From a virus: a stretch of DNA of 64,000 nucleotides. Where the stretch lies: positions 80,874 through 144,873 of IMG/VR virus record IMGVR_UViG_3300034105_003474; one strand, 5' to 3'. Below the pieces are notes generated by a model. The model was given only the letters and a program-made list of their open reading frames with translations. It searched no databases and was not told the origin of the DNA. Shown here one piece after another: positions 1-58,680 of this stretch; the first letter of the stretch is position 1, and each line of letters opens with the position of its first letter. A program made the position numbers and the translations under genes.

Positions 1-1882
1 TGTTGAAAACAAAACCTTGTTTCCTTCTTTCTGATGCTTTCCGTATTTCTGGTCCTAATGCTTCTATCAACTGAATATGACCTTCATATTTTCCAATATC
101 GGATTGCAGTTGAGCAATTTTTTTCATTGTTTCAACACGGTTGAATTCTTTTACTTCTGGAGTATTGCCAAGAGGTGAACGCATAAGTCTGAATTCTGCG
201 CTGAGTTGTGTTTCTAATTCCGCAAGTTTGGTTCGCGCACCTGCAACTCCACCTTGCGGTCTTACATATCCAATATATTTTCTTTTCGCTTCGGTAACTA
301 AAGCCGATACATCAGCATTGGGATTTGCCCTCAGTAAATCTGCAACTCTTGAAAGTTCTTTTTGGAAGTTTCGTACCGCAAGTTGGCGACCTTCATTTTG
401 GTTAAACAGTGCTTGATCGGCTGCTAAGCCAAGTTGTCCCAAAAGTTTTGGATCTCGCATTTGAAGTAATACTTCTTCAATAAGATCTTCATCTTCTTTT
501 TTGAATTTCGCCGCTTCCATCTTGGGGGCAACATGCTTTAGTTCATCTGGCACATCCCTAACATCGCGTCTTGTCGGAGCATTGAAAGGTTCGTCAATTG
601 GGTTTGGCACGCTTGACGGTTTCGGGGCAGGTGTTTCTCTTCTGTCGGAAGGCAGTTTATTGTGTTTCTCTACTTCTTTCCAAGCATTGATAACGTCATT
701 GAGTTCTTCTTTTAATTCACGCACATTCATTTGTTCGTTTGCACCAGAAACAACATCAAGGGGACTCAAATCACCCCTATTCTGTGCTTGCTGTATGCGA
801 TCAAGTTGTGCTTGATGTATCAAAATATTTCTTTTTGCAAGGTTTAGAGCGTTTGACCTTGGGTTCTGATCTGTTTGATTTATATCAGGGAAGTTAATTG
901 GATCGTTTATTATTCTTAAACGTGCGTTCAATACATCTCTGTTGATTCGTTCAACAAAAGTTTCATCATTTAGCACATTATTCAAGTTCATGTGCCTTAT
1001 TTTTTTGGGGCGAGCAGCCTCTGCCCTAACCTCTTCGGAACGAGCGGCATTGTCGCTTTCTCCGCGTGGAGCAGGTCGCGGAACTCGTCTTTGTTCTGAT
1101 TCGGCATCAAGCATCGCACCAATGTCGCCTTCGGGTTTCTTTCTAGGGCGACGAGGTTTAACCACCTTTGGTTCTACAACTGGTTTTTCAACAATGTTTT
1201 GTGCTTGTTGTCTTGGTGCTTTAGGCTTGTTTGTTGCTTCAACAACTGCACGACGACGGCGACGAGCAGGTGCTTCACCAGTACGAGGTGCACCGGGTTG
1301 TTCAATCTCACGATCCATGCGTCGTTGTTCTGATTCTCTAACATTTGGCGCACGCCTTCTCTGTGGTGCACGAGGAGCAGGTGGAGTAGGGGTTAACTCT
1401 CTTGGAGTGGCAGGTGCATCAACGGATGGTTGTCGGGTAACAACAGTTCGCCTACGGGCACCACGAGGACTTGGGGTATCGGAAACTTCTAATCTGTCTG
1501 CAACACCACGCAAACCTCGCTCTAGGCGACCTGCGCCACCGCTTTGAGGATTAAGTCTTGCAAGTATTCGTCGTTCACGACGAGCAATACGACGACCACG
1601 GCGAGCATCATCAACATTCTCTAAGCGTTGACCAATATCTGATATTTGATTAGCGATGCGTCGTGCGACACCCCAACCGCAAGACCGACCAAAGCGATCG
1701 GTTATCTGTCCGCCATACCGTGTCCCCGTTGGACAGCGCCAGCCTCCACGACGGTTGGTGCCGGGTATAGAAAGACTTGGATCCCACATGGCGCGAACAG
1801 CCTTGACTTCATAAGCAATAGTTGACGTGTTCCGTTCGCTAAGAAAAGATTTTGCCTTAAAGTCGGCGATATTCTGAAGCAT
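1..1882 (-). CDS. Large head-operon protein with shared N-terminal RCPxG module; truncated by the left window edge
   Basis: Missing from the ORF track because no stop lies in the window. ATG at 1882 reads MLQNIADFKAKSFLSERNTSTIAYEVKAVRAMWDPSLSIPGTNRRGGWRCPTGTRYGGQITDRFGRSCGWGVARRIANQI, nearly identical to the modules in 2200-5067 and 5492-8164. The same frame is open at the window edge (..EIRKASERRKQGFVFN). Confidence 0.85.
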   Translation of the reverse strand, partial: MLQNIADFKAKSFLSERNTSTIAYEVKAVRAMWDPSLSIPGTNRRGGWRCPTGTRYGGQITDRFGRSCGWGVARRIANQISDIGQRLENVDDARRGRRIARRERRILARLNPQSGGAGRLERGLRGVADRLEVSDTPSPRGARRRTVVTRQPSVDAPATPRELTPTPPAPRAPQRRRAPNVRESEQRRMDREIEQPGAPRTGEAPARRRRRAVVEATNKPKAPRQQAQNIVEKPVVEPKVVKPRRPRKKPEGDIGAMLDAESEQRRVPRPAPRGESDNAARSEEVRAEAARPKKIRHMNLNNVLNDETFVERINRDVLNARLRIINDPINFPDINQTDQNPRSNALNLAKRNILIHQAQLDRIQQAQNRGDLSPLDVVSGANEQMNVRELKEELNDVINAWKEVEKHNKLPSDRRETPAPKPSSVPNPIDEPFNAPTRRDVRDVPDELKHVAPKMEAAKFKKEDEDLIEEVLLQMRDPKLLGQLGLAADQALFNQNEGRQLAVRNFQKELSRVADLLRANPNADVSALVTEAKRKYIGYVRPQGGVAGARTKLAELETQLSAEFRLMRSPLGNTPEVKEFNRVETMKKIAQLQSDIGKYEGHIQLIEALGPEIRKASERRKQGFVFN

Positions 1883-1885
1883 GGT

Positions 1886-2203
1886 TTAAGCCTTAAAACT
1901 TTTTTTATTTGGAAGAGATTTAATTTGATTTTTATACATTTCTTCAGTTACTTGCCCATCAGAACTGTATTGTGCGGACATTGAATTAAGACGGTAAAGA
2001 ATATATTCCATTCCGCTTCCCTCTAAAGGGATCTCGTTTCGTGCCGACGATTCTGAAAGAATTTCAATAAGTTGATCAACAAGTTCTTTATCGGAAGCGT
2101 GTATTTCTACAAGTCCATCAATATTTTTTCCAGCGCAAGACCCATTTACCTTGTTTGTAAATGGATCCATGAATTGACCTATAAAAAACTCTTTCATGAT
2201 CAC
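1886..2203 (-). CDS. Small partner protein (105 aa) downstream of a kinase; candidate immunity/inhibitor
   Basis: ATGA overlap with the stop of 2200-5067; loose similarity to 5190-5486 (DP..., DGLVEIHASDKE vs DKGIIKYYSKDKD). Confidence 0.75.
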   Translation of the reverse strand: MIMKEFFIGQFMDPFTNKVNGSCAGKNIDGLVEIHASDKELVDQLIEILSESSARNEIPLEGSGMEYILYRLNSMSAQYSSDGQVTEEMYKNQIKSLPNKKSFKA

Positions 2204-5067
2204 CTTTGGTTACTTGGAATTATATTGACTATCTCATTTTCGGCGTTGCGAAGGTTTGCAAGACTTCGTACCATGCCATCATAAAGTGCTCCTGCTCGGG
2301 CTTTATTTGAGTCAGTCTTACTTACTTTCTGCAATGCGTCTGTTATGAATTGTTCACGACCGACAGCAAGTGTTTTTTCTGTTTGCACAACAACCTGTCT
2401 GTACACTTCTTGAATTCGCGCATAAGTTTCACGCCTTTGCGCGTCTGACATAGCGGGTAGTGCGGTGCGCATTGTGGCAAGAATGTCCTGATCCATTGAG
2501 AAACCCCGTTGGTAACGATCAAACAGCCCTCCGTGTGCCCTTCCAGCCCAACCCAAGTCCATCGGAACGACATGCGCTAATTTCTTGCCGTCTGGTAATT
2601 CCACTACACGACCCATACCGTTGCCTCCGTGGCGGTCGCTAACACCAAGAATATAGTTGGCTAGAACATTGGACAATCTTTCAGGAAGACCTTTATCTGG
2701 AAGAGCGTTCAGGGCTCCTTTGTTGAAATCGTACCCACCAGCAGCACCGCCGATTACTGCCCCTTCAGGCACGTCGTTGTGTGCCAGAGGGATCATGATG
2801 TAAGGGGTTCCTTTTCGGACTGTTCCAAGAGGCTTTCGTACATCTGCTTCAAGTTTACCGTCTTGAATTGCTCCGTCTTCCAAGATCCCTACAGCAGCCA
2901 AGTAGTTCCATCCAATGAGTTCGCCGACATTGTCGGCAGGTTTTGCAGCCTTGAAAACCCATCCCTGATTAGTCGGATTTCCATTTTCATCACGCAAAAA
3001 GTAAATTTTAGTTACACCTACAGCGCCACCGTTGGGTTGTACTTTTTTGAAACGCTTATTTGTGTCTCGTGGGTCTGATGAAGCGTTTGCCTCTATGGCA
3101 ATGTGCATGAATTTTGCTGGAACTTTTTGTATGTCTCCACCATTTTTTATATGGTCAATTGCTTTTTGTTCCGTATTAATTGTTCGGTCTTCTTCGGAAA
3201 CAAACTTTCCGATAGGGGAGTTCCTTCTGTCTATCTTTAACTTACCATGAGCATTTTTTGATCTTGCAAACTTACGGAATGGTGATTTCTTTTGTCCTTG
3301 AGCCGCTGCTCTTGGTGCAGTAGGTGGTTTAGGTGTCGTTGGTGAATTGTCTTCTGTCGCTGGGAATTCCCCTGAAGGACCGCCAGCAGCAGCATAAATA
3401 AATTCTGCGAAGTTGTTGTAGTCACTTACCGTATGGCGACCGCCATAGCCCTGTTCGTAAGAGTTCCCATCTGGTTCGCGTAGAGTAAATTTTGTTAATT
3501 TTCCATTACCGTCAAACTCTGGAGTAAGCGTGTAACCATTTCGTGTCCACATAGTTTTATCTGTGTTAAGAACCCAATTTGAATTTAAATTCAACTTTTC
3601 CAAATTGTTCAGTGGTTGATTATTAGGTGCTTGTCCCTGTTGTTGAGCAGGACGTGCTGGTCTCACAGGTCGCGCTGGTGCTGGCTCTGGAACATCATCG
3701 GCGGTTGGTTTGCGTGTAGCGCTACGAGCGGCACCTGCTGTTGTTGCCTTCTTGCGACGACCACGATTATTCCGTGGGCGACGAGCCTGTGGTGTTGGCG
3801 GTTCAAAATCTTGTGGTGCACTACGACCGTGAGCATCTTTCCAAGCGTCACGAAGATTAGGTTTGTTGATTGCATACCATTCACGCCGTGTCAGCATTCC
3901 TGCGTTTCCACCACCTGCGCGAATCTCACGAACACGCTTAGCGTATTCATCGTATTTTCTTAATACATACGGGCTGAAACCTTCGGTTGCACTTGCGTCT
4001 GATGCTTCGCGTGCTGTGAGTACATCAACGTTTTCTGCTTGTGGTGCAACGCGTGGGCGTGGCTGTGGTCGTCTTTGTCCTGCTGGCGCTGGTCGGCGTG
4101 CAGGACGAGGTGTTGACGCAGGCGTTGGCGCTGTTTCAGGAATAACATCGCGTCTCCTGTTTTGTGGTCTACGAGCCGATGGTGCACCTGCTTCAGGTAG
4201 TACATCTTCGCTTCTTTCGCGACCACCATTTCCGTTAACAACTCTGTCTAAAACACTTCCGGGTCGCAGGTCATCTGCTATGCGGTTGCCAAGTTCAGCA
4301 AAACCAGGACCGCCTCTTCGCTGTCGCGGTTTAGCACCACCTTCAAGACGATCAGCAATACCGCGCAATCCACCTTCAACGCGACCAGTCTCAGGAACTC
4401 CACCAAGCCGTCTAATCATTCGTGCGTTACGACGGTCAAGGCGACGCTTTCGTTTGTCGTCGTCTCGTTGTTCTAAGCGTTCACCGATGTCGGCGATTTG
4501 GTTGGCGATGCGACGCGCTACGCCCCAACCGCACGAACGACCAAAACGATCGGTGATCTGTCCGCCATATCGTGTCCCTACAGGGCATCGGAAACCACCA
4601 CGACGATTCGTGCCGGGAATAGAAAGACTCGGATCCCAAATTGCTCGCACACCTTTGATTTCAAAGTTGAAAGATGATTGGGTTTGGTCAGAGATAAATG
4701 ATGAAGCCTTGAAACTCAGAACATTTTGGAATTCTTCGTTTGAAAACTCAGAAAGTAAAACCTCAGATATTGAAAGAACAGGAAGGTTTTTGGTTTCTAC
4801 AATTTCCGGTTTAAGGAATGCAAGGTTTGCAACCTTTTTCTCTATCGCTGATCCTGATGGGCTTGGACCTTCAATAATTTTTGATGAGTCCATTGTTTGA
4901 ACTAGTTCAGGTTTTGTTATAGGTGTTTTGCCATATTCTTGACGGAGAAATGTGGCAACTTCTTTAGCGGCTTCGGTCATTGGCTTGAAGGTGGATCCTT
5001 CAGGGGTCGTTGAGACGACCATAAATGGTGTGTTGTCGCGATTTTTGATAATGAAAACTAGGTTCAT
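2200..5067 (-). CDS. RCPxG module + Arg/Pro-rich linker + PI3/PI4-kinase/HipA-like domain (955 aa)
   Basis: Gly loop GGAVGVTKIY, VFK lysine, helix-C Glu (NVGELIG), catalytic SDRHGGN, VPMDLG metal-binding motif. Confidence 0.85.
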   Translation of the reverse strand: MNLVFIIKNRDNTPFMVVSTTPEGSTFKPMTEAAKEVATFLRQEYGKTPITKPELVQTMDSSKIIEGPSPSGSAIEKKVANLAFLKPEIVETKNLPVLSISEVLLSEFSNEEFQNVLSFKASSFISDQTQSSFNFEIKGVRAIWDPSLSIPGTNRRGGFRCPVGTRYGGQITDRFGRSCGWGVARRIANQIADIGERLEQRDDDKRKRRLDRRNARMIRRLGGVPETGRVEGGLRGIADRLEGGAKPRQRRGGPGFAELGNRIADDLRPGSVLDRVVNGNGGRERSEDVLPEAGAPSARRPQNRRRDVIPETAPTPASTPRPARRPAPAGQRRPQPRPRVAPQAENVDVLTAREASDASATEGFSPYVLRKYDEYAKRVREIRAGGGNAGMLTRREWYAINKPNLRDAWKDAHGRSAPQDFEPPTPQARRPRNNRGRRKKATTAGAARSATRKPTADDVPEPAPARPVRPARPAQQQGQAPNNQPLNNLEKLNLNSNWVLNTDKTMWTRNGYTLTPEFDGNGKLTKFTLREPDGNSYEQGYGGRHTVSDYNNFAEFIYAAAGGPSGEFPATEDNSPTTPKPPTAPRAAAQGQKKSPFRKFARSKNAHGKLKIDRRNSPIGKFVSEEDRTINTEQKAIDHIKNGGDIQKVPAKFMHIAIEANASSDPRDTNKRFKKVQPNGGAVGVTKIYFLRDENGNPTNQGWVFKAAKPADNVGELIGWNYLAAVGILEDGAIQDGKLEADVRKPLGTVRKGTPYIMIPLAHNDVPEGAVIGGAAGGYDFNKGALNALPDKGLPERLSNVLANYILGVSDRHGGNGMGRVVELPDGKKLAHVVPMDLGWAGRAHGGLFDRYQRGFSMDQDILATMRTALPAMSDAQRRETYARIQEVYRQVVVQTEKTLAVGREQFITDALQKVSKTDSNKARAGALYDGMVRSLANLRNAENEIVNIIPSNQR

Positions 5068-5189
5068 TGTTTACTTTCCACATTCGTGAAGATATTCAGC
5101 AAGCCATGCAAATCTTGAGGTTGCATTATCGCTACCGTAAAATGGTATCACTAAGTGGGTGATATTAATTTTAGGTTGATGTCAATATA

Positions 5190-5486
5190 TTATTTGTTAT
5201 CTAATTTTTTGTGACCCAAGGCAACTAGGAAATTATTAATTTTATCCTTATTTGAACCCTTGTACTCAAGTATTTCTGCATGACGGTATGAGTACCCATG
5301 CAACATACTCTCAAGGTCAGCCCTATCCGACGAGCCTTTCTTGACCGCCAAAAAGTGTTCATTGTCCTTTTTGTCTGAATCTTTATCCTTTGAGTAATAC
5401 TTAATAATCCCTTTATCGTCCTCAACTATGACGAGTGGATCCACCTGAACTAGTGGGTCTTTGGAGGTGATGATCGCTGCTCTCAT
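5190..5486 (-). CDS. Small partner protein (98 aa) downstream of a kinase; candidate immunity/inhibitor
   Basis: Starts 5 nt after the kinase stop; aligns with 9876-10193 (MR.A..T, P.V..E.D.GI, E....G.SY). Confidence 0.8.
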   Translation of the reverse strand: MRAAIITSKDPLVQVDPLVIVEDDKGIIKYYSKDKDSDKKDNEHFLAVKKGSSDRADLESMLHGYSYRHAEILEYKGSNKDKINNFLVALGHKKLDNK

Positions 5487-5491
5487 GGTTC

Positions 5492-8164
5492 CTATGATCC
5501 TATAATCAAATCAGCAAGTCTGCCGGGGTCAACATCTGTTATATATTTCATTTTTCTTTGCGGTTTTACGCCAACCCTCAAAAGAGCCTGATCCCCACCC
5601 CTAGGGTTAGCGGTTCCATCCCCACCGGCTTTCAGTACATCTTCAACAACATTCATATACGGGTTTTTACGCTCTGCCTCACGGATGGACTTCTGAACCT
5701 CTTCAACGGCTAAGAGTATCTCGCGCCGACTTATTTGCCTATCTTTGAATTGCTGTCTCAATGTTGCAAGCATCTCGTTTCTTCTACCACCAACATCGTT
5801 GCCTAAAAAGCCTCGTAATCCTTCGTCGTTGCCATCATAATTTTCGTGAGCCCGCCCACCCCAGTTGACATCAAACCCAAGAGAAGGATCAATTGGGACG
5901 AACCGCTTCTTACCACTGGAGTCAGTCGCTACAAAGAAGTTCCCTCCATGGCGGTCTCTGTTGACCATGATGTAGTCCAAAAGTGTCGCTCTAACACGAT
6001 CGGCAGGTTTTATTTGCGACACGGCTACTTGATTTCTTCCGTCTGTCAGCACCCCATCAACGTAGTTCCCTGCGTGTTCATAAACAATAGCCCTACCAGC
6101 GCTGTTAGGGGCACCCGGTCCACCTTTTTGTTTCCCATCCATTCGCACACCACCGACAGGCATGCCAAGTCTACCAGCAAGATTATTGCCGATCACTTCA
6201 TGAATGTCTTCGTTTTCTGCATGGGCACCACTTTGGTATTTTAAGAAAAACTTGTTCCCAGTGATGGCGTCGGTAAACATATGCATATTGTTGGGAATGT
6301 TGCCGTTAACACCACCACCAGCATCTGATTTAGAGAATCTTGTTGTTGCACCGTGTAGTGCTTCACCCAATAACTCATCAGGGACATCAGCCAAATCTCC
6401 ACCTTTTTCTAGGTGGTCAATTGCTTGCTCCTTGGTATCCATACCTTTGTTCCCCAATGGAACGCTTTTCACATCAGGCAAACCGTCTTCACCTAATTTG
6501 TTCAGTTTTTCTGGTGCATGACCATCTTTTGCTTTTGGTGGTGAGACATCCCATCCACCTTCTGGTTCTGGTATGTCTGCTGGTCGTTGTGGTGGTTGCG
6601 CTGGTGACTGTACGCGTGGAGCGTTCTGGTCGTTGACATTATTATTTGGTACAACAACTTGATTTCGTTGCCTAAATTCAATAGCAGCATCAATTTCAGC
6701 AAGTCTTAATTCGGCAGCGGAAACTCCGTCTTTTATTTTTTCTTTTTGTCCCCACATTCGCAATAAATTATCTCTGGCTTCGTCTCTTTCTCGTTCGCTA
6801 CCATTCTTTTTACTCTGCCAGTCTTCAAAGGCTCTATCAAATCCTGCTTGAGCCTCTTTGAGAAGTTCTTGATCTCTAATTTTCTTTCCCAAAACTTCTT
6901 CTTTGGACATGTTGCGCAAATTATTGTAAGCGTTCGGCTTGTATCTTTCAATTTCCCCTTCTACTGCTTTGACTAAAGCCTCGTCTCTTTGCTGGTCAAA
7001 CTCCCTGCGAGGGTTTATGTCTCTTGCTGGCAGTGGCGGTGGACCTGCTCGTCGTGCAGGTGCTTCAGGTTCAGGCTGTGGCGCTCCTGCTTGTTGCCCA
7101 AATATTTGTTGGTTAACAAAATTGCCACGAGCATTACGCTTATTGTTGTCATCGTAATACCGACCAAACCTTCTCTCTAGTTCGGCTTTTTCTTCGCCTT
7201 CAGGGAAGTCTGGTTTACGCCAATACGCATCTTCGGGTAATCCGCGAAGATCGCCAAATCGGTTAACAACATTACGGATAGAACGATCGTCCGGTATGCT
7301 CCCTCCCAACTCGTCTGCTGTTGGGTTCCATGCGGGTGGTGGTGGAATTGGTGATGATTGTTCCGCTGGTCGTTCTGGTGGTTTTGGTGCGGGTTTTCTG
7401 CGTGGCACCTTTGTCGGTACAGGTTTTGAACCGTCAACAAAATCTGCTTCAGGTTTTCTTCTAACAGTTCTTTTTGCGCCTTGTTGTGTAGCGTTTCGTC
7501 GGCGTCGTCGTGGAGCATTTGGTGCGGGTGGTTCACCTGTGCGTGGTGCGCCGGGTTGAACTATTTCTCTGTCCATTCTTCGTGCTTCTGATTCACGGAG
7601 ATTTCCTCTTCTCCGAGGTGCCCGTGCTGGTTCTCTTGCTGGTTGTTCAGCATCTCCGCCAACAGGGATTCTTGGACGAGCAGGAGGTTCTATGCGTGCA
7701 GGATTTTGAACAGCGATTCGTGGACGAGCAGGAGCGCGTGGAGTAGTTACTGGTTTTCCAGTTGCTCCACCATCTAACGCGTCTGCCAAACCGCGAGCGC
7801 CACGCTCAAGTAAGCCGGGTTTATCTTGACGAGCCAAAAACCGTTGCACACGCGCATTCCGTTTTGCCAAACGAGCATTTCGTTTACGGTCGTCAACATT
7901 CTCTAGCCGTTCACCAATATCTGCTATCTGGTTTGCGATTCTCCGAGCAACACCCCACCCGCAAGACCGTCCATAACGGTCTGTAATTTGACCGCCGTAT
8001 CTTGTGCCAACAGGGCAACGCCAACCGCCACGACGATTCGTGCCCGGAATAGACAAACTTGGATCCCAAAGCGCACGAGCGCCTTTAACATCATAATTAA
8101 AAGTACTTGCAGTTTGCTCAGCGAGAAACGCGAGCGCCTTGTAATTCACTTCATTCTTGAGCAT
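5492..8164 (-). CDS. RCPxG module + Arg/Pro-rich linker + coiled coil + PI3/PI4-kinase/HipA-like domain (890 aa)
   Basis: GGGVNG loop, FFLKY, DIHEVIG, LLDYIMVNRDRHGGNFFV, VPIDPSLGF. Confidence 0.88.
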   Translation of the reverse strand: MLKNEVNYKALAFLAEQTASTFNYDVKGARALWDPSLSIPGTNRRGGWRCPVGTRYGGQITDRYGRSCGWGVARRIANQIADIGERLENVDDRKRNARLAKRNARVQRFLARQDKPGLLERGARGLADALDGGATGKPVTTPRAPARPRIAVQNPARIEPPARPRIPVGGDAEQPAREPARAPRRRGNLRESEARRMDREIVQPGAPRTGEPPAPNAPRRRRRNATQQGAKRTVRRKPEADFVDGSKPVPTKVPRRKPAPKPPERPAEQSSPIPPPPAWNPTADELGGSIPDDRSIRNVVNRFGDLRGLPEDAYWRKPDFPEGEEKAELERRFGRYYDDNNKRNARGNFVNQQIFGQQAGAPQPEPEAPARRAGPPPLPARDINPRREFDQQRDEALVKAVEGEIERYKPNAYNNLRNMSKEEVLGKKIRDQELLKEAQAGFDRAFEDWQSKKNGSERERDEARDNLLRMWGQKEKIKDGVSAAELRLAEIDAAIEFRQRNQVVVPNNNVNDQNAPRVQSPAQPPQRPADIPEPEGGWDVSPPKAKDGHAPEKLNKLGEDGLPDVKSVPLGNKGMDTKEQAIDHLEKGGDLADVPDELLGEALHGATTRFSKSDAGGGVNGNIPNNMHMFTDAITGNKFFLKYQSGAHAENEDIHEVIGNNLAGRLGMPVGGVRMDGKQKGGPGAPNSAGRAIVYEHAGNYVDGVLTDGRNQVAVSQIKPADRVRATLLDYIMVNRDRHGGNFFVATDSSGKKRFVPIDPSLGFDVNWGGRAHENYDGNDEGLRGFLGNDVGGRRNEMLATLRQQFKDRQISRREILLAVEEVQKSIREAERKNPYMNVVEDVLKAGGDGTANPRGGDQALLRVGVKPQRKMKYITDVDPGRLADLIIGS

Positions 8165-9883
8165 TTATTTTTTCTTCTTTGCGCTGACCAAGTCTGGCTT
8201 AATGAAGGTTTCGTACTGCCAACGAGGTGCTGTTCTTTCAATACCGTCAAGACCTGTGTAAGTAACAAGTTCCAACGGCTTAGGAACATTTCCTGTATCG
8301 GTGATAAACTTAAATGCACCTTCTGAGTTTTTGGCAAAATTCTCAATATTTGAAATAATGTTATCTTTTGTGCTTGATTCTGCAAGAGAGTTAATCATTC
8401 GTGGGAACTTGCGCTTCTCGCCAATCGTAAATGGTCGTGAACGCTCAATACTTACCACTACACCGTTTGGTGCAACAAACGCAATTTTACTCATTGAAGG
8501 ACCACCCAATAGTGCCAGATCATCTGCTCCTATATCAGCAGGTAGTTGAATGGCGCGAACCATTGCGCCGTCAACCATGTCAGGGTTCTCGCTAAAAGAA
8601 CGAAGAACAGATGAAGCAACAACAGGACGCAAAACCACTCCGTCTCTGCGGATCATTCTGCCTTCACCTTTTGGTGCGCCTTTAAGCAAGTTGATTGAAT
8701 CCGATACTGAACGGTTGAATTTATCTTTTTGGAATGCACCTGTTCGTGGTATCTGTGCCATGCGCTGAATTTGAATTGTTCGCGCTGCTGTCGGTGAACC
8801 TTCTAATACTTCGGACAGATTCTCTGCTCGCGCTTGTGGAAGTTTTGGTGATGCTGTCGGGCGCATTGCTCGCCTTATGAGTTCTAGCGGACCTGGTATT
8901 TCAAACAACTGCGCACCACAAGTGGAGAAACGATTGTCCGTGAAACGACCACCAAATTCAAAACCGGCAGGGCATCGTGCTTGACGCCTGCGATTAGGCT
9001 TGAGCCTGCTGAGCGCCCCACCGCCACCGCCGGGAATAAGTGCGCCATAAAGTCTTGAGCGAATAGGTGCGCTGAATGGGGATATGTTGCCCGGTGTTAC
9101 TACAGAACCAACTGCCTGAGCCGCTCTACCAAGTCCACTTGAAGAACCAACAAGACCTGCTTTGATTTCCATGTCTTCAGCGTCATCTTTTTCAACACGG
9201 TATCCACCGCCACGCTTCTTGTATTCGCGAACAAGCCAAGCGTTAGCGTAAGCAGAAGGGTATACATTGAATTTCTTTTTTGCTTCGGCTTTTACTCGCG
9301 CATAAAGTTCTTTGTCCGTTGGGATATTCGCACCTTTTAATGTGGTCTCATCAGATTTGAATGTGGACACATTGATCGGCTTGTTTTCTTCTCGGTTACC
9401 CGCTGTTTCTGCACGACGCTTTCTGCGAACAGCGGAATCAATTTCTTCTGCGGACATTCTCATCGCTGTAGATTTCTTTACACACTTAGGGTATTTACCT
9501 GAATCTGCGTCTCCGCGACCACATGACTCAAATCCGCCACCTTTTTTCGGGCGTGAAATATCAACCCATTCTTCTTCAAACCATTTCCCTAATCCACCGC
9601 GCTTGGATTCATCACCGATAAAGGTTTCTGCACCTAGTTTTGATGTACGAGACTTTAGGTAAAGTTTTGCTTTAAAGTTTAGAAGAGCCCTACTTCCGTC
9701 AAGCGGAGTTTTACGAACATCTGATCCTTTAGTGAAAAGGAATTTTGTTTTTGCATTATCAGGGTTAAAATAAATTTCCTCACCAGAGACAATATTCGTC
9801 CGTTTCATAGCAGTTTTCATACGCATAGACATACGGAGTTTTCTCGCAAAATACTCAAAGTCTTGGTTGAGATAACTACTCAT
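8165..9883 (-). CDS. Multidomain head-operon protein with DUF5872-like modules and an RCPxG module (572 aa)
   Basis: GLGKWFEEEWVDI..CGR..YPKC and PTDKELYARVKAEAKKKFNVYPSAYANAWLVREYKKRGGGY motifs (family name recalled, not searched); RCPAGFEFGGRFTD..C. Confidence 0.7.
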   Translation of the reverse strand: MSSYLNQDFEYFARKLRMSMRMKTAMKRTNIVSGEEIYFNPDNAKTKFLFTKGSDVRKTPLDGSRALLNFKAKLYLKSRTSKLGAETFIGDESKRGGLGKWFEEEWVDISRPKKGGGFESCGRGDADSGKYPKCVKKSTAMRMSAEEIDSAVRRKRRAETAGNREENKPINVSTFKSDETTLKGANIPTDKELYARVKAEAKKKFNVYPSAYANAWLVREYKKRGGGYRVEKDDAEDMEIKAGLVGSSSGLGRAAQAVGSVVTPGNISPFSAPIRSRLYGALIPGGGGGALSRLKPNRRRQARCPAGFEFGGRFTDNRFSTCGAQLFEIPGPLELIRRAMRPTASPKLPQARAENLSEVLEGSPTAARTIQIQRMAQIPRTGAFQKDKFNRSVSDSINLLKGAPKGEGRMIRRDGVVLRPVVASSVLRSFSENPDMVDGAMVRAIQLPADIGADDLALLGGPSMSKIAFVAPNGVVVSIERSRPFTIGEKRKFPRMINSLAESSTKDNIISNIENFAKNSEGAFKFITDTGNVPKPLELVTYTGLDGIERTAPRWQYETFIKPDLVSAKKKK

Positions 9884-10193
9884 TTTTTGCCGATTCTTTC
9901 GGTTCTTCAGGTTCCGCTATTTCTGCGGGCAAGGTTGTCTTCCACTTTTTAGCCAACTGCCTTAAAAGTGTAATATTTTTTTCATCCAGCACATTAGTAC
10001 TAACACTATGATACGACATTCCCGAGGTTGCTTTTTCAATAGTGTCCCTTTGGGACAGAAACAATTCGTTTGTCAAACTTGATGCGAACTTCGGGTCAGG
10101 GGCTACCACACCAAAAATGCCGTAATCCCCCTCAAGAAGAACATATGGGATACCTGAAACATCGGCACTCGGGGTAACTAGGGCGTATCTCAT
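9876..10193 (-). CDS. Small partner protein (105 aa) downstream of a kinase; candidate immunity/inhibitor
   Basis: ATGA overlap with the kinase stop; paralog of 5190-5486. Confidence 0.8.
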   Translation of the reverse strand: MRYALVTPSADVSGIPYVLLEGDYGIFGVVAPDPKFASSLTNELFLSQRDTIEKATSGMSYHSVSTNVLDEKNITLLRQLAKKWKTTLPAEIAEPEEPKESAKNE

Positions 10194-12043
10194 ACAACAC
10201 TCGCGACTATATCTTCCAACGCTGAGTCAGCCTTGAGTTTTGGTGGTTTTACAACAAGGTCTGCCAATTGTTTTGGGGTCATTGCTTGCATCTCTCTTAA
10301 GCGTGACGACGCCTTTCCGATGTCTGCCTGCATCTTTTCCATTTCTTTCAACTTTTCGGGAGACATCGCCCATTCTCCTATCAAATTACGATCTTTCAGC
10401 ATCTCGTCAAGTTGACTCAAGAGACGATTTTCCAATGAATCTGCGTCAATTTTCTTTATATCTTGGAGAACTTTTTCAGCATCCTCAACCAGTTTTGCAT
10501 GCTTCTCAACTGTCCCACCGTGGCGACTATTCAGTTCTTGACCAAGATAACCATATTGAAGACCGCCAGCAAACTTTTCTGCTGTTTCGCTGAAATCAAA
10601 AACGTTGAGAATAAAACTATGGTCAATGGGGACTGCGTCCACACCATCAGAGTTTTCAGCAAAAAGGATGTTTCCGCTATGCCTGTCACCATTAGCCATA
10701 GCAATATCCATGATTTGCATATGGAGTAGTTTGCGACTGTCCACCTTTGCCAATGTTTCAGGGGTGGCAGAGAGTATTTGTCCCTCATATGAGTTGTGAA
10801 CCAAATCGGTTACTACTCCCATGGCTGCCTGTGTCGGGGATGCTTGAACAACTCGCAAAGATGAAGATGGATACCCAAAGTCTTCTGTCATGGAAACAGC
10901 AAGAACTTCGCTCGCTGGCTCATACCATCGGGATGCTCCTCCCTTGGTCAGAGGGGCATTGCTTAACGGGGATTTTTTATCCCAAAGTTGTGTGCGTGAA
11001 GCGTATTTAACGCCCAACATTTGACCTGTAGTTCTATCACGCAAGCGGTTCATTCCAACCACTCCCCCACCAGTGCCAATAAGTTCAAACCTCTTCAGTT
11101 CCGCAATGTTCCCATCCTCGTCGTAAACATCAATATTTTCTAGGATTGCGTCAAGAACCAGAGTGTCGCTGATTTCGTTCAGTTTCCCGCCATTAGCGAT
11201 ATGTTGTGAAGCCTTTTCACCAGTATCAATGTTTTTATCCACGCTAGGTAAATCACGGGCAATGTTCCTACCGTTGGCATCAGCAACACCAATTTGTGGG
11301 TCAAAGTCTTTAGCCTTGGCAATAGCGCTGTTGCCTTTCTTGAACCCGCTAGGGGATTTGACCACGGGTGGATCAGCCTTTGGATCGTCTTTTTTATCTT
11401 TGCGACGCTTTAATGTCGCTAAGAGGAAATTCTTTGCATCAACGGTGGCGTCTCGTTTAATCTTCCCCGCTACTGCTTCCAACTGTTCTTTTTTCTTGTC
11501 AGATATTTTCCCGCGCCTATGAAGCGAGTCAGTAGCAAAGTCCAATAGTTGCGCACCGCCAGACTTCAATAAAACCATACCGAAAAGCGTAGATTGTGTC
11601 ATTGAATCTGAACCATCTGCGTACATGTAATCCATTGTTTGCAGGGCAATCATCGCCGCTGCTTTTGAACCATTTTTTACTTTTTCAGATTTGAAAATTA
11701 CCCGAGCGCCATCAATCAATTTTCCAGCCATGGAAGCCGCCCCGCGTGCTGCTGATTCAGCAGAAGGGGTGAGGCAGTTGGACATCTGCATGTCGGTGAA
11801 CTGATTTGCGTTAGGTGTACCGGGTGGGCATCGCAACTTACCCAAAGAATCAACTATCACCCCCGCAGCACGCGCCGCTCTATGACCAACAGAGGTTAAC
11901 TCTGGTCGGTCTTTTACAGTAGGTCCAAGGAAACCTTTGAACAGCAAAACATTCTCTTGAACAGCAGCAACAGATTTGCGGTATTCTGCAACTCTCTCGT
12001 TTGCGTCAAAAGCGCGAGACGATTTAATCATCGCCTCAACCAA
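10190..12043 (-). CDS. Divergent RCPxG module + PI3/PI4-kinase/HipA-like domain (617 aa)
   Basis: RCPPGTPNANQFTD..C; GTGGGVVG loop, GVKY, PASEVLA, MDIAMANGDRHSGNILF, VPIDHSF. Start codon uncertain (TTG). Confidence 0.85.
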   Translation of the reverse strand: MVEAMIKSSRAFDANERVAEYRKSVAAVQENVLLFKGFLGPTVKDRPELTSVGHRAARAAGVIVDSLGKLRCPPGTPNANQFTDMQMSNCLTPSAESAARGAASMAGKLIDGARVIFKSEKVKNGSKAAAMIALQTMDYMYADGSDSMTQSTLFGMVLLKSGGAQLLDFATDSLHRRGKISDKKKEQLEAVAGKIKRDATVDAKNFLLATLKRRKDKKDDPKADPPVVKSPSGFKKGNSAIAKAKDFDPQIGVADANGRNIARDLPSVDKNIDTGEKASQHIANGGKLNEISDTLVLDAILENIDVYDEDGNIAELKRFELIGTGGGVVGMNRLRDRTTGQMLGVKYASRTQLWDKKSPLSNAPLTKGGASRWYEPASEVLAVSMTEDFGYPSSSLRVVQASPTQAAMGVVTDLVHNSYEGQILSATPETLAKVDSRKLLHMQIMDIAMANGDRHSGNILFAENSDGVDAVPIDHSFILNVFDFSETAEKFAGGLQYGYLGQELNSRHGGTVEKHAKLVEDAEKVLQDIKKIDADSLENRLLSQLDEMLKDRNLIGEWAMSPEKLKEMEKMQADIGKASSRLREMQAMTPKQLADLVVKPPKLKADSALEDIVASVV

Positions 12044-12373
12044 CTATTTGTCGCTAGATTCTGACGCTTTGTTAAAGAAAGAAAGTGGAACAACATCATC
12101 ATCCTCTGCATCTTTTTTCTTAGAAGGCTTTTTCGTTTCCACTTTGGTTTCTTGTGCATCCTCAACAGGTTCATCAACGCTGATCTCTACTGATGCAGGT
12201 GTTTCAACTTCCAACACTGCTTCTTCAACGACAACTACTTCCTCTTTGACTTCAACCTCAACAACAGAAATCTGAACTTCAGGCGTCTCAACTACGGGCA
12301 CTTGTTCTTGTTTTGTGTCAAAAGCAAGACCAGAAGTGTTCACTGAGTCAAAAGGTTGGTTTTCTTTTTTCAT
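12044..12373 (-). CDS. Acidic low-complexity hypothetical protein
   Basis: 109-aa E/V-rich ORF, TAATG-coupled to the upstream gene. Confidence 0.7.
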   Translation of the reverse strand: MKKENQPFDSVNTSGLAFDTKQEQVPVVETPEVQISVVEVEVKEEVVVVEEAVLEVETPASVEISVDEPVEDAQETKVETKKPSKKKDAEDDDVVPLSFFNKASESSDK

Positions 12374-13851
12374 TAAATGTCGCCAAGACCTGTTTCAATT
12401 TCAAGCATTTCAAGTTCCATCAAACTGCTTAGGAACTCTTTCGCTTCGTCATCCAAAAGAGTCTTTTCTTCCGACCATTCGGCAGGAATCATGTCTTCTT
12501 TGTCAAGTTCCATTGCACGCTTCTTGATGTGTGCTTTTGCTTTTTCTTTATCTTTTGCGCGACCGTAAGACATGATTGCGTTCTTCAAGTCTTCTTCGTC
12601 CTTGATTGGGTATGAGCCGTCTGGCAAAGCCATTCCGCCCTTAGCCATTTCGTCACGCTCATCTTCGCTGTACATTGCCTTAAGGGCAACATCGGCTACT
12701 TCTGCATCAATGTCTGCGGCTTCTTCAGGATCGTATTCATCAAATCCGAGGATTTCACCGTCAACACCAACATAAACATCGTATGACTTTCCGTCTACGC
12801 CTTCAATTTCTACAGCGTAAGCGTCGTAACCATCAAACATATCTGCGTCTACAGAAACAACTTCGCCTTCAATTGACTTGGTTGCAATATCTGAAGCCTC
12901 ACTGAACGAGATTACTTTTTGTCCGGGTACGGTTGCTACTTCACCGATCAAATCTTCATTCAAAAGGTGCCAGCCCATGCACTCGCCTGACGAACCGTCA
13001 AAGTAAGCCTCAACTGGCTTTCCATCTTTGCGTTGAACATCAACAACAAAAACATCAACTTCGTCCGCGTAGCCAGAGTCAAGAACTTTTCCTGCGAACA
13101 TGCTCTCTGCCATTCCTTCAATTTCAAGAAGACTTGGCATTGTGTCTTGTTGTTCACATCCACCTGGGCATGATGCACAGATTTCTGAACCACCCGCATA
13201 GACGCGACGCTCAATGGCGCAAACAAAAGCAAGATCGTCGTAGTCAGCAGACTTGACACCCATTGTTTCCATGCGCTTAGCGCGAGCCTTCTTGCGTTGC
13301 TCCATCATCTTTTCAATCTCGCTGTACATCTTCTCTTCTTCATCATCAAGATCTTCAGGCATGTCTTCTTCGTCGTCTTCTTCTTCCATATCCACGACTT
13401 CAGTAGGCTTCTTTTTCTTTTTTGCAGGAGCAGGGGTCATTCCCTCTTCCATCATTGCGAGATCTTCTTCCATCTTTGCTCCCTTTTCGTCTGAAGCGGT
13501 AACCCACTCAGATTTTTCGGTTGCTACTTCTGGTGCTGCGTCAGCAGGTACGGCTTCTTCCGTTTGCGTGACAGCCTTCGCTCCACACTTGCCACAAACT
13601 TTTGCGCCGGGCTTGTAGCCACATTCTGTTAACTCCAAACCTTTGGCGCATTCAATTCCGCCGTCTGCAAGAAGTTTTACTGTTGGTGTTTCGCTAGCCA
13701 TGTTCGTGGACTCCTTGTAGTGCATTGTTTTTGCAATACACTTTGTTGGATTAGAGCAAACAGAGCATGGCGTCAAGCGTTTATCGCCTGACATCAGACA
13801 CTGATATTTTGCTGTTTTTTGTGGTAAACCTGTTATTGAAGTATAACCCAT
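12373..13851 (-). CDS. Acidic protein with Cys4 clusters, two PepSY-like repeats and a C-terminal LPDGSYPI helical module
   Basis: Three CxxC-containing clusters; ISFSEASDIATKSIEGEVVSVD..YAVEIEGVDGKSYDVYVGVDGEIL is PepSY-like; MALPDGSYPI..AKAHIKKRA module of phage head genes. An alternative start at 13701 has an AAGGAG SD. Confidence 0.7.
   Translation of the reverse strand: MGYTSITGLPQKTAKYQCLMSGDKRLTPCSVCSNPTKCIAKTMHYKESTNMASETPTVKLLADGGIECAKGLELTECGYKPGAKVCGKCGAKAVTQTEEAVPADAAPEVATEKSEWVTASDEKGAKMEEDLAMMEEGMTPAPAKKKKKPTEVVDMEEEDDEEDMPEDLDDEEEKMYSEIEKMMEQRKKARAKRMETMGVKSADYDDLAFVCAIERRVYAGGSEICASCPGGCEQQDTMPSLLEIEGMAESMFAGKVLDSGYADEVDVFVVDVQRKDGKPVEAYFDGSSGECMGWHLLNEDLIGEVATVPGQKVISFSEASDIATKSIEGEVVSVDADMFDGYDAYAVEIEGVDGKSYDVYVGVDGEILGFDEYDPEEAADIDAEVADVALKAMYSEDERDEMAKGGMALPDGSYPIKDEEDLKNAIMSYGRAKDKEKAKAHIKKRAMELDKEDMIPAEWSEEKTLLDDEAKEFLSSLMELEMLEIETGLGDI
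13839..13849 (-). promoter_or_regulatory. Candidate promoter element GGGTTATACTT (copy 2)
   Basis: Identical 11-mer at 16075-16085; contains a TATACT -10-like hexamer. Confidence 0.4.
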
Positions 13852-16104: not shown

Positions 16105-18309
16105 CTATTCAGTGAAACCAAAACGCAAACGACAACGACAATTGAAAGTCAATGCAGGCGGAGCAACTGGATCACCGGGAAAGCGCAATGCAAGACCATC
16201 AACGATGAACCCGTCACCAAACTCAACGGTTTTGCCTTCAAGGAATTTATGTGCATTACGCACACGCGAGTCCTTACGGGTGATCCAGGTTTTTGTCATA
16301 CCAACATTGTTTTCTTTGCCAGCCAAGAAGACACCGCCGTTGTATGAAGCCTGAGCCTCATGTTCAGCAATATCCCTGCGACGCTTGGAAATTAGTTTCA
16401 AGAAAATGGCGATCAAAGCCAAGCGCAAAAGCACCGAACGCTCTTCTTCATCTTCTTCCATCAGCGCAATGGCTATCGCTGCTGAAATTTCTTCTGCCGT
16501 TGTGGTGTTTGCCTGTTGCATACGCTCTATTTGTTGCTGAGCAAGTTTCTCAACCTCTTGTGGCTCCATCACTACATTGCTACTAGTGCGTGAAGCGACA
16601 TACTCTTTGGCATCAGTGTAGATAGCCAAAATGATTGGCTCTAGATCTTCTGCTAGTTGCTTGTCCCAAATCTCGCGATCAAAAATCATGTCAACTGTTA
16701 GCACACCGCTAGATATTGACTTGATTCCTCGTTTGCCAAAAGCCTTCTCCAAAACGACTCGCTGTTGGCGTTCAAAGATTCTCTCAAGGGCACGGTCAAG
16801 TATTTCCGTCCATCGCTCTGTGTCTGTGTCGGCTTTTGTTTCTAGTTCTTGCACAAACTTCAGTTGCATTTCATGCTGAATCTTCTCAAATTCAGATAGT
16901 TGCTGATCAGGAGTGAGTGATGCTGTTTCCGTTGCTTGAGCAGGCATGTCAGGCGCTGGAACTGGTGTTGGTGGTGCAGGAACAGGCATCTCCATCGCAC
17001 CTTCTTGTGGAGGTAGACCCGGAGGCGCAGCGTTTGGATCAACACCCGCCATGTCAACTGGCTGTTGTTCTTCGGGCTTAAACGGCTTCTCCGTGTTCGC
17101 AATTGGCGTGAGGTTCGGGTTGGAAAGCAAACTGTCAGCAAGTTCAGAATCAACTTTTTTGCGACCAGTAGCAGTACGGTACTCGTTCAGACTGATTAGA
17201 CCCTGTTGGAACTCGTCCATCACATATCGTTCGCGTTCTTGTTTTGCAAGAATTAGAATTGGAATGTCTTCGGTGTCAAAGTCAACATAGTATTTATCGT
17301 CAAGTTCATCAAGTGCTCGCGCCAATGTGTGAAGGTGTGGAGCCATTGTCTCCATCCAAAAAACACGGAGTTCTTCGGAAGCATTAGAGAAAGTTCTTCC
17401 CGAAGCGTTACCGATTACAGATTCAGGAACACCAAAGGCGGCGAAGATTTCATTTTTCTGAATTTCACGCATCTGTGTGTAAGCCGCATCTCGTGGTGAA
17501 GCAGATGTGTCCACATAGTCAACACCAGCCTCAGAAGCAATCACTGTTGTTGATCCTGTTCGCGAAATGTTGCCACGGAACCTATTCTTCAACTCTTGCT
17601 TGTCATCATCTTCCATGTCGCCTCTAACAACGAGTAGACCGCCCGGGCGTCCGTCGTTGATGAGATAGTTGCGGTTATAAAGTTTTGACAGGTTCTCTAA
17701 TTCAATAGCGATACCAGCGGACTCCATTGGCGTCATTGACAGATATGGATCAAGTGGATGTGGTCTGCGAATCCAACACACGTCTTCAGGCTTTAGAACA
17801 AACTTTGTTCCGTTGCGCATGTCAACTTCAAAACCTTGCACGAACTTCTTTGAATCAGGAATCGGTGCCGTGTACTGTGGCGGGAGAAGTTGTAGGGCGA
17901 TTATTTTTCCGTCTCGCGAACGAACTTTCTCAATGAATACGCCTCTGGTACTCATCAAGAGTTGCGCAGAAATTCGGTACCTGAAAGCAAACGAATTTTC
18001 TCCGTCATTTGATTTAGAGTTAAAAATCTCTAGTAGAGGCTTGTTGTCTTTGGTTTGCTCGCCTCGCTGGTCGTTGCCTTTGCGAAGTATGACGGGGAGT
18101 CGTGCTTGGTTTCCTGCGATTGCATCTATGCATCGGAACACCCAAGTAACTTTTTGCATTCCTTCTCGGTATGCACGATCAATGTCCCAACCATCTTTGT
18201 ATGGTTTCCCAACTCGTCCCATGTCAAAGGCAATAGGCGCACCGGGGTTAGACATTGCCTTTTCGGCGCTGTTTCTGAGATCTTTATTATTTTCGCTATT
18301 CCAAGCCAT
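16105..18309 (-). CDS. HK97-type portal protein fused to a C-terminal MuF (gpF/SPP1 gp7-like) domain
   Basis: WVFRCIDAIA, NDGRPGGLL, IFAAFGVPESVIG portal motifs; C-terminal KTWITRKDSRVRNAH..FPGDP..FNCRC MuF signature. Confidence 0.93.
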   Translation of the reverse strand: MAWNSENNKDLRNSAEKAMSNPGAPIAFDMGRVGKPYKDGWDIDRAYREGMQKVTWVFRCIDAIAGNQARLPVILRKGNDQRGEQTKDNKPLLEIFNSKSNDGENSFAFRYRISAQLLMSTRGVFIEKVRSRDGKIIALQLLPPQYTAPIPDSKKFVQGFEVDMRNGTKFVLKPEDVCWIRRPHPLDPYLSMTPMESAGIAIELENLSKLYNRNYLINDGRPGGLLVVRGDMEDDDKQELKNRFRGNISRTGSTTVIASEAGVDYVDTSASPRDAAYTQMREIQKNEIFAAFGVPESVIGNASGRTFSNASEELRVFWMETMAPHLHTLARALDELDDKYYVDFDTEDIPILILAKQERERYVMDEFQQGLISLNEYRTATGRKKVDSELADSLLSNPNLTPIANTEKPFKPEEQQPVDMAGVDPNAAPPGLPPQEGAMEMPVPAPPTPVPAPDMPAQATETASLTPDQQLSEFEKIQHEMQLKFVQELETKADTDTERWTEILDRALERIFERQQRVVLEKAFGKRGIKSISSGVLTVDMIFDREIWDKQLAEDLEPIILAIYTDAKEYVASRTSSNVVMEPQEVEKLAQQQIERMQQANTTTAEEISAAIAIALMEEDEEERSVLLRLALIAIFLKLISKRRRDIAEHEAQASYNGGVFLAGKENNVGMTKTWITRKDSRVRNAHKFLEGKTVEFGDGFIVDGLALRFPGDPVAPPALTFNCRCRLRFGFTE

Positions 18310-58002: not shown

Positions 58003-58680
58003 ATGTCAGCACCAAATATCGTAGGCGTAACGACCATTAAGGGTAAAACAGCAGTTCTTGCTGTCACGACTACGGCTACACCTATCGTCAAAAACGAGGG
58101 TAGTAGCGCAGGAACAACAACTGTTGTTACAGCAAGCGGATCATCTGCATATGTTGTCGGCGGTTCAAATAACGCAACTCTTGCTTTTGTTCGTGGCGCA
58201 ACTTACACTATTCAAGTAAGCGCAGTTGGTCACCCGTTCTGGATTCAAACATCATCGGGCGCGTATAACGCAGCCAATGTTGTCACTTCTGGCATTACAA
58301 ACAACGGTACCGAACTCGGCTATATCACCTATCAGGTTCCTGCTGATGCTCCAAGCACTCTTTACTATGCTTGCCAACACCATTCCGCTATGGCTGGAAC
58401 GATCAATATCACTGGTACGGCAAGCAACTCAGGCAAGGTGCTTAAAATCAATGCCTTGTATGTAGCGAACGTAGACGGTGCCACCGCCGCAGATATTTCA
58501 GTTGCTTTGTATCGTTCGGGTGTTGCTTATGAACTTGCCCACACTGTCTCTGTCCCAGCAGACGCAACACTAGATGTCATTAGTAAATCTATTTATCTAG
58601 AAGAAGGCGATGATTTGCGCCTTACCGCATCTGCCAACTCTGACCTTGAAGCAGTATGTAGTTATGAGGAGATTAGTTAA
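58003..58680 (+). CDS. Small tail-associated protein with an inserted cupredoxin-like module
   Basis: GHPFWIQT..LYYACQHHSAMAG sits inside a ~120-aa APNIV..KINALYVANVDG..SYEEIS protein. Confidence 0.75.
   Translation: MSAPNIVGVTTIKGKTAVLAVTTTATPIVKNEGSSAGTTTVVTASGSSAYVVGGSNNATLAFVRGATYTIQVSAVGHPFWIQTSSGAYNAANVVTSGITNNGTELGYITYQVPADAPSTLYYACQHHSAMAGTINITGTASNSGKVLKINALYVANVDGATAADISVALYRSGVAYELAHTVSVPADATLDVISKSIYLEEGDDLRLTASANSDLEAVCSYEEIS

Follow-up and report, generated by a model that had tools for sequence, protein, structure and literature searches.

Phage proteins that are injected with the DNA act before any phage gene is read and thus decide the first minutes of an infection. Few carriers for such proteins are known, namely the capsid-targeting sequence of T4, MuF and the Dar proteins of P1. 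The internal proteins and Alt of T4 as well as DarA and DarB of P1 are basic proteins which accompany the DNA and take effect ahead of phage transcription (PMC5512222). Polyvalent proteins are large, are encoded beside virion genes and have been proposed to be packaged and injected early; they carry kinase payloads and vary in a cassette-like manner (PMC5512222). Polymorphic toxin and effector systems are defined by a C-terminal enzyme that varies on a conserved N-terminal part, by a small gene cognate to the enzyme and by fragments that have been displaced (PMC5576092). In this study, we analysed the final 64 kb (the window) of one virus contig of 144,873 bp (IMG/VR record IMGVR_UViG_3300034105_003474; G+C 46%), and describe an array of large proteins encoded in the head operon. 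Three of them, K617, K890 and K955, end in what sequence and model identify as atypical kinases; two further ones, D572 and X931, end otherwise. Judged from the sequences of relatives, the C-terminal domain and a small gene behind it are swapped jointly as a cassette on a conserved N-terminal module marked by an RCPxG motif. The array thereby presents, at the sequence level, the architecture of polymorphic effectors, in which the carrier module is new and the main payload is a kinase related to PI3/4-kinases, HipA and CtkA.

Four features are common to the array and the polymorphic MuF toxins (PMC5576092): the N-terminal part is conserved and head-associated, the C-terminal enzyme or toxin varies, a small cognate gene comes directly downstream, and the genes lie in the head module. 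The array differs in its carrier, which is the RCPxG module, MuF being found on the portal protein instead; in the number of carriers, four to six in tandem; and in the main payload, the word kinase occurring 0 times in PMC5576092. Moreover, MuF toxins are found in temperate phages, whereas the phage described here is a large myovirus in which no temperate sign turned up, although no search was aimed at lifestyle. With the polyvalent proteins the array shares its place among virion genes and its kinase payloads, but each array protein in the window holds one recognisable enzyme domain and not two or more. The polyvalent kinase clade is without the whole C-terminal subdomain and nearer to classical Ser/Thr/Tyr kinases (PMC5512222), whereas our model predicts a full helical C-lobe; HipA is nowhere mentioned in that paper. 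The internal proteins and Alt of T4 and DarA/DarB of P1 are likewise basic and encoded with head genes, but have no sequence relationship to the array proteins. Neither the capsid-targeting sequence of T4 nor the removal of this sequence by the prohead protease has a demonstrated counterpart in the array.

Concerning the kinases, the three large open reading frames (ORFs) which a first-pass annotation of the window had placed downstream of portal-MuF and protease exist as described (Table 1), and the C-terminal approximately 330 amino acids (aa) of each are a kinase domain. The annotation had read the kinase motifs as intact, and the positions of the catalytic-loop and VP(I/M)D motifs were verified (Table 1): all three proteins have a GGxxG loop, the beta3 Lys, the helix-C Glu, DRH(S/G)GN and VP(I/M)D. 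A pre-kinase segment, DTxE[KQ]A..H...GG, is shared by the three, as had been noticed, and is conserved across the family. In a family alignment of 19 sequences the D, R and N of the catalytic loop, the P-x-D motif and the helix-C Glu are invariant, and D[RKQ]HxxN is kept in 165 of 182 collected relatives. The DRHxxN catalytic loop is that of PI3/PI4 kinases; the activation loop begins with VPID, VPID and VPMD, and the DFG motif of PI3/4-kinases is absent. The gathering cut-off of PF00454 (27.1 bits) is passed by K617, K890 stays below it and K955 gives no match; the matches span about 40 positions around the catalytic loop. A search of the Protein Data Bank (PDB) with a single kinase domain (phmmer) found no match, but the 19-member family profile matched CtkA at 6.4e-5 and PI4KB at 4e-4, with HipT and HipA_C at 0.2. 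The alignment with CtkA begins at the G-loop, includes the catalytic loop and ends shortly ahead of the metal-binding Asp.

Structure prediction agrees with these assignments. A single-sequence AlphaFold2 run of the K617 kinase domain reached pLDDT 42 and was discarded; the run on the 19-sequence alignment, which was used instead, gave pLDDT 84 and pTM 0.84. Compared with 48,161 chains by VIA-align, this model matched CotH (Z 13.6), PI4KIIα (13.3), CtkA (12.1), PI4KIIIβ (11.3) and HipA (11.1), and at Z 10 or more also ATM, MavQ (Z 10.6) and actin-fragmin kinase; among the 50 matches listed, nearly all are kinases or phosphotransferases. Foldseek found PI4KIIα at 8.5e-6. The nearest shapes in the ESM Atlas are HipA_2 clusters (TM 0.54/0.66), and PF20613 HipA_2 is recorded on the distant homologues P0028-P0032. 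The expectation that the domains would model as kinases was thus borne out. From the intact catalytic residues together with the profile and model matches, the C-terminal domains of K617, K890 and K955 are, as far as sequence and predicted structure tell, catalytically equipped atypical kinases of the PI3/4K-CtkA-HipA-CotH fold group. CtkA (Helicobacter pylori JHP0940) is their closest solved relative by profile and, like HipA/HipT, shares the N-x-DRHxGN loop and ranks among the closest folds; these proteins, however, are stand-alone enzymes of approximately 320-440 aa, whereas the kinases described here form the C-terminus of head-operon proteins of 600-950 aa. PI4-kinases IIα and IIIβ share the DRHxxN loop and the fold (Z 11-13), but the array kinases are without DFG and without a helical, C2 or other accessory domain.

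The modelled fold itself cannot separate a protein from a lipid substrate. Since P-x-D replaces DFG and the matches include CtkA and HipA_2 families, proteins appear the more likely substrates on sequence and model. To our knowledge, those bacterial members of the fold group which have been characterised and have bacterial targets, for example HipA and CotH, are protein kinases. Several actinobacterial groups make phosphatidylinositol, as the likely hosts may do, and the host is probably an actinobacterium. The array may be imagined to be packaged and injected with at least one lipid kinase in it. Such a kinase would be directed at the membrane of the actinobacterium, with phosphatidylinositol or phosphatidylinositol mannosides as substrate, or, as a 'Trojan horse', at the phosphoinositides of protist grazers. 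The PF00454 score of K617 would fit such an enzyme, as would PI4KIIα and PI4KIIIβ among the best folds and the match to the Legionella lipid kinase MavQ; furthermore, the most variable part of the kinases is the segment after P-x-D, where phosphatidylinositol kinases read the head group. CtkA, the top match by profile, is nevertheless a protein kinase, the Mg-binding motif is P-I/M-D and not D-F-G, and no membrane-binding element was identified. We regard a lipid kinase in the array as improbable.

All large array proteins share an N-terminal module. Translation of the complete genome (144,873 bp) in all six frames yields the motif [RK]CPxG..TD..C exactly five times, always in the array, in K617 (where it is divergent), D572, K890, K955 and X931. 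Its core reads RCPxGTRYGGQITDRFGRxCG. Over the approximately 65 residues of the module core, K890, K955 and X931 are 86-88% identical in protein and 57-64% in DNA, whereas the kinase domains of the array paralogs are approximately 25-26% identical to each other. Both the common RCPxG module and the disparity between near-identical modules and diverged kinase domains had been pointed out in the first-pass annotation. The excess of protein over DNA identity points to purifying selection on the protein and not to recent copying. A recent duplication or gene conversion was considered as the source of the likeness and rejected for the same low DNA identity.

The module is not confined to this phage. 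The motif stands, nearly letter for letter, N-terminal to the kinase in 58 of 119 cluster representatives of the kinase family with at least 500 aa, and it is visible in the consensus of 32 giant proteins which are otherwise approximately 20% identical; a 20-residue motif thus stays nearly constant while the remaining protein drops below 25% identity. A search with the N-module alone returned 419 proteins, the best 120 of which comprise 95 ending in a kinase and 25 ending in an X931-type domain. The linkers behind the module are long, disordered and very basic, rich in Arg, Pro and Ala, as in K890. The large array proteins carry net charges of +23 to +48 (D572: +36), as opposed to -41 to -59 in the neighbouring scaffold-like proteins. 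We propose the RCPxG module as a candidate for an undescribed carrier module.

Upon comparison with relatives, the C-terminal ends turned out to be exchangeable. At the K617 position the first approximately 210 residues are 75-78% identical among relatives, and the remainder differs. Locus L016 encodes here a DUF3626 domain (39 bits, cut-off 27) followed by a different 66-aa gene; DUF3626 is the domain of the Salmonella effector SopF (PMC6682159). L019 has another domain without family assignment, followed by a 79-aa gene. In L018, an insertion of approximately 440 aa splits the kinase: the remnant of the C-lobe forms a separate ORF of 253 aa with a decayed catalytic loop (NGERDVSN), and the usual small gene still follows. 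The replacement domains of L018 and L019 had no match in the PDB by phmmer; a ParB-like 'DGHHR' and a metallopeptidase-like 'HELSH' are guesses at the level of motifs. At the K955 position, a 1336-aa protein of L019 joins the N-terminal part of K955 to an X931-type C-terminal domain, and an X931-type small gene comes next.

Kinase identity, moreover, tracks the type of the small gene. At the K890 position the median identity is 64% among relatives with the same type as compared to 29% with a different one, and at the K955 position 54% as compared to 25%; in the same phages the protease is 80-91% identical and the N-module of relatives 83-100%. Against relatives with another type of small gene, similarity stops just after DRHGGN in K890 (residue 744) and at VPMD in K955 (residue 833), with identities of 80-98% persisting in the N-terminal parts and the protease, suggesting that the exchanged unit consists of the kinase C-lobe and the small gene. 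The polymorphic system that had been supposed from the window is therefore recovered in L016, L018 and L019 as well as in the type-linked identities. As a separate observation, L018 encodes an additional 140-aa protein (4444-4866, +) just before its K617-type gene, by eye a candidate of the 2OG-Fe(II) oxygenase type.

The small genes themselves are coupled to their large partners. One of 86-105 aa follows each of K617, K890, K955 and X931, and the small gene predicted downstream of every kinase protein was found in all three cases (Table 1). The partners of K617 and K890 are distant homologues with nine invariant positions, the partner of K955 is of a different sequence type, and the small genes among kinase-bearing proteins at large fall into several unrelated sequence types. 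They have no match in Pfam, PHROGs or the PDB and no helix-turn-helix (HTH). When the kinase domain of K617 and the 105-aa partner were submitted to complex prediction, the score was 0.22, with the mark at 0.32, which speaks neither for nor against binding. A kinase with a small coupled gene recalls HipA and HipB, and the array may be understood as a set of morons in which the kinase is a HipA-like toxin, the small protein its antitoxin, and superinfection exclusion or addiction the outcome, with no delivery involved. The presence of HipA in the fold group, PF20613 on distant relatives and the HipA_2 shapes in the Atlas are in keeping with this, as is the small gene that accompanies each kinase. 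HipA, however, pairs with an upstream HTH antitoxin, HipB, whereas the partners here lie downstream and belong to no Pfam family. The kinases form the end of proteins of 600-4500 aa with N-module and basic linker, which such a toxin does not need, and their position between protease and major capsid protein (MCP) is fixed even in distant lineages, unlike that of mobile morons. A toxin-antitoxin or exclusion function deserves little credence on these grounds.

The genes of the array abut or overlap by 4-8 nt, and promoter- and terminator-like sites are fewer than in shuffled sequence (by a sigma-70 scan, which may not suit the host); both fit a single transcription unit. The array adds approximately 17 kb of genes between the protease and the capsid gene. 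The first-pass annotation had assumed that the array takes the place of the capsid gene. This is not the case, since an MCP gene with a PF05065 match lies downstream, outside the window, and the array stands between protease and capsid (Table 1). A capsid domain within the 700-aa protease protein had also been considered and was rejected because of the separate MCP gene. The proposed fourth paralog at the edge of the window, X931, does share the N-module, but is not a kinase: behind module and basic linker follows a non-kinase C-terminal domain of approximately 280 aa outside the window, and the HMM (hidden Markov model) of the kinase family gives no match in X931.

Table 1. Features of the head operon and of the remaining contig (positions in the window unless marked genome)
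Feature	Position	Strand	Matches and remarks
Portal-MuF, 734 aa, first head-operon gene	16105..18309	-	PF04860 1e-49; PF04233 7.3e-8
S78 prohead protease, 700 aa	13906..16008	-	PF04586 6.4e-11
Acidic 492-aa protein, PepSY-like stretch	12373..13851	-	PF03413 2.2e-5; charge -59
Acidic 109-aa protein, conserved position	12044..12373	-	
K617, 617 aa	10190..12043	-	PF00454 29.3 bits; modelled; orthologues 67-92% identical
K617, RCPPG..TD..C motif, divergent	11774-11833	-	
K617, kinase domain	10229-11236	-	DRHSGN 10670-10687; VPID 10622-10633
Small partner of K617, 105 aa	9876..10193	-	4-nt overlap with K617 stop
D572, DUF5872 N-terminal part	8165..9883	-	PF19197 4.8e-14; RCPAG..TD..C motif 8918-8977
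K890, 890 aa	5492..8164	-	family HMM 6.9e-100; PF00454 17.7 bits, below cut-off
K890, RCPVG motif	7961-8020	-	
K890, kinase domain	5498-6472	-	DRHGGN 5939-5956; VPID 5888-5899
Small partner of K890, 98 aa	5190..5486	-	5 nt after K890
K955, 955 aa	2200..5067	-	family HMM 2.2e-97; 112-aa leader, N-module, basic linker, kinase domain
K955, RCPVG motif of N-module	4531-4590	-	
K955, kinase domain	2206-3216	-	DRHGGN 2620-2637; VPMD 2557-2568
Small partner of K955, 105 aa	1886..2203	-	4-nt overlap with K955 stop
X931, first 627 aa	1..1882	-	full 931 aa at genome 79960-82755; RCPTG 1679-1738
Major capsid gene	genome 75681-77006		PF05065 7.7e-48; 5 kb past window
Large terminase	18560-19864		
Tail sheath	27285-28751		
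whiB-family genes (two)	genome 26501-26692 and 62430-62630		outside window; Pfam 53 and 50 bits

The order of portal-MuF, S78 protease, array and MCP is identical in all 17 related loci collected from NCBI, ENA and IMG/VR, and the 492-aa acidic protein keeps its position in each of them. Two distant lineages preserve the arrangement. L025 encodes portal-MuF, S78 protease, a 393-aa protein, a 1954-aa protein ending in a kinase, a 101-aa gene, a DUF5872/DUF3721 protein and the MCP. L023 has the S78 protease, a 692-aa kinase protein, a 1606-aa protein, an 88-aa gene and the MCP; the 1606-aa protein (8501-13321, +) combines an RCPxG motif with two complete kinase domains (residues 899-1228 and 1291-1601). 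With 17 close loci and both lineages, the linkage of the homologues to head genes, on which the original proposal hinged, is confirmed.

This constant place among late head genes, next to very acidic neighbours, permits another explanation: the kinases would be expressed late and not packaged and, while heads are being assembled, would phosphorylate either host proteins or phage components (of the head, the scaffold or DNA packaging), and the small genes would be regulators. The spore-coat protein kinase CotH as top structural match supports it, and the acidic scaffold-like neighbours (the protease with its long, acidic, scaffold-like C-terminal part, net charge -41, included) offer possible substrates. 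An assembly kinase would however be expected in stable one-to-one orthologues, in place of which we find swapped domains (a SopF-type DUF3626 and others) and decayed fragments. The three to four copies in a genome, diverged and accompanied by cognate small genes, look like the product of diversification driven by conflict, and it is hard to see what an assembly kinase would do with a linker that is long, basic and disordered. We consider this explanation unlikely, though of some weight. Should the kinases turn out to stay outside the head, the array would still show with unusual clarity how cassettes are exchanged within a structural operon.

Instead, we favour, on balance and with reserve, the view that the array proteins are cargo which is packaged in the head and ejected into the next host. 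It builds on the position between protease and capsid, on linkers of a charge opposite to that of DNA, on the polymorphic architecture, on head-fusion precedents (see below) and on the early injection proposed for comparable proteins. An array of cargo genes would have been inserted in the head-morphogenesis operon, in the interval from protease to MCP. The N-module would bring the array proteins into the prohead, where the basic linker might lie with the packed DNA, and at infection the proteins would leave the head together with the DNA. The kinases may then phosphorylate host targets, proteins more likely than lipids, before phage genes are expressed, for takeover or anti-defence. In the producing cell, the small proteins would bind their cognate enzyme as inhibitor or chaperone.

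Several points weigh against packaging and injection, which are derived from gene position, composition and analogy. The position in a late operon fixes the time of expression only. No array protein, nor any of 32 large family members, has a MuF or a known head-anchoring domain; MuF in this operon sits on the portal protein. The N-module is without match in Pfam, PHROGs or Atlas and has no known fold or function. CotH, the top match of the model, is an assembly kinase working inside the producing cell, and a partner resembling an immunity protein or antitoxin would be equally compatible with a toxin-antitoxin system. Finally, no cultured relative was found: among 50,697 phage records, tblastn found no match to K617, to the kinase domain of K890, to the N-module or to a distant member of the family.

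More specific versions of the proposal are correspondingly less probable. That RCPxG is a new loading signal and the array consists of injected protein kinases with cognate inhibitors, lipids being left aside, we judge to have slightly less than an even chance. That RCPxG is a head-loading and ejection signal by which a large group of abundant freshwater actinophages delivers interchangeable enzymes, that in addition at least one kinase phosphorylates phosphatidylinositol lipids of the actinobacterial membrane at the site of entry, and that the small partners are dedicated inhibitors which silence each enzyme up to its packing, is very improbable as a whole; if this lipid version is true, no earlier case of phosphoinositide chemistry driven by a phage in a bacterial host would precede it. 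In case the proposal holds, RCPxG would join the few carriers mentioned above and might serve as a tag by which injected effectors can be recognised in phage genomes from metagenomes and possibly as a means to load capsids with foreign proteins, and the array would provide natural kinase/partner pairs for studies on specificity.

The kinase family is large. An exhaustive profile search found 407 clusters (at 50% identity) at E <= 1e-3, of which 207 at E <= 1e-10, and the kinase is nearly always C-terminal in proteins of 500-4500 aa. In some relatives a NUDIX domain, a 2H phosphoesterase domain or a second kinase domain is present. With at least 407 sequence clusters, the family spans mostly uncultured phages, including probable phages of dominant freshwater actinobacteria. 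In BFVD, the same kinase fold is found within viral proteins named portal, head morphogenesis (MuF) and ADP-ribosyltransferase, with fusions in proteins of Mycobacterium phage Onyinye and of Gordonia phages among them; hence this class of kinase is repeatedly tied to head components. A K617 orthologue is named 'Phosphatidylinositol 3-/4-kinase, catalytic domain containing protein [uncultured Caudovirales phage]' at NCBI. We found no paper discussing this kinase family of head-operon proteins, and a study of freshwater phage genomes (PMC6802176) nowhere mentions a kinase.

The contig encodes contractile-tail phage genes (sheath, baseplate wedge, fibres and large terminase); the window has 0 tRNA genes. 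Two whiB-family genes score above the Pfam cut-off, whiB being the marker by which freshwater actinophages are called (PMC6802176), and the MCP is nearest to those of Brevibacterium and Gordonia myoviruses (47-48% identity). On this sequence evidence the host is very probably an actinobacterium, as had been suspected, and the phage is probably an uncultured freshwater actinophage, a myovirus of 145 kb. Megablast with 25 kb of the locus gave no match. Among cultured actinophages, the myovirus Gordonia phage ChisanaKitsune (L006, MZ820089.1) has an MCP 47% identical to the one described here. Its portal-protease interval (2641-7606) also holds extra genes, with the annotations RNA ligase, VIP2-like ADP-ribosyltransferase toxin and 'HNH endonuclease' (970 aa); the kinase profile matches none of them.

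As to the remaining array genes, the true start of K617 is probably, by comparison with its orthologues, the ATG four codons in, giving 613 aa as in these. In D572 no kinase domain was found by the family HMM, and its C-terminal approximately 230 aa are without family assignment. X931 and six orthologues had no match in Pfam or PHROGs, and the C-terminal domain of X931 had none in the PDB by phmmer. An Atlas feature search with this domain gave a weak acetyltransferase lead (score 0.90, to a cluster with 20% PF00583 members); a GNAT is not claimed. After X931 follow an 86-aa gene, two proteins of 431 and 424 aa with a DUF3721 motif and then the MCP gene. The 424- and 431-aa proteins (L002 2631-5197, -; genome 77131-79697) have a short Cys motif of the DUF3721 type, LGCxG...W(L/M)PC, and DUF3721 is confirmed by Pfam in the 431-aa protein only. 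The C-terminal part of the latter had no match in the PDB by phmmer. At the position of these two proteins relatives have variants of 380-880 aa, and at that of the 431-aa protein variants of 400-880 aa, one of which (L017) shows a match to an Arr-type ADP-ribosyltransferase at the cut-off.

Elsewhere in the window, a PAPS-reductase-like gene (22662-23795, +; phrog_2302, 4.9e-77) lies with Rad52/PD-(D/E)XK recombination genes on one side and head-tail connector genes on the other. The fibre-like family phrog_2295 is present in at least four tandem paralogs (54088-55053, 58680-59708, 60145-61377 and 61377-62849), followed by an ORF that runs off the window (63503-64000). The contig begins and ends with 521 bp that share 87% identity, and hence its assembly probably broke, or closes, inside this repeated family. 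In the tail-fibre region, two adjacent paralogs (46024-46974 and 46984-47943, +) belong to phrog_1417, a family of unknown function, with approximately 1e-40 each.

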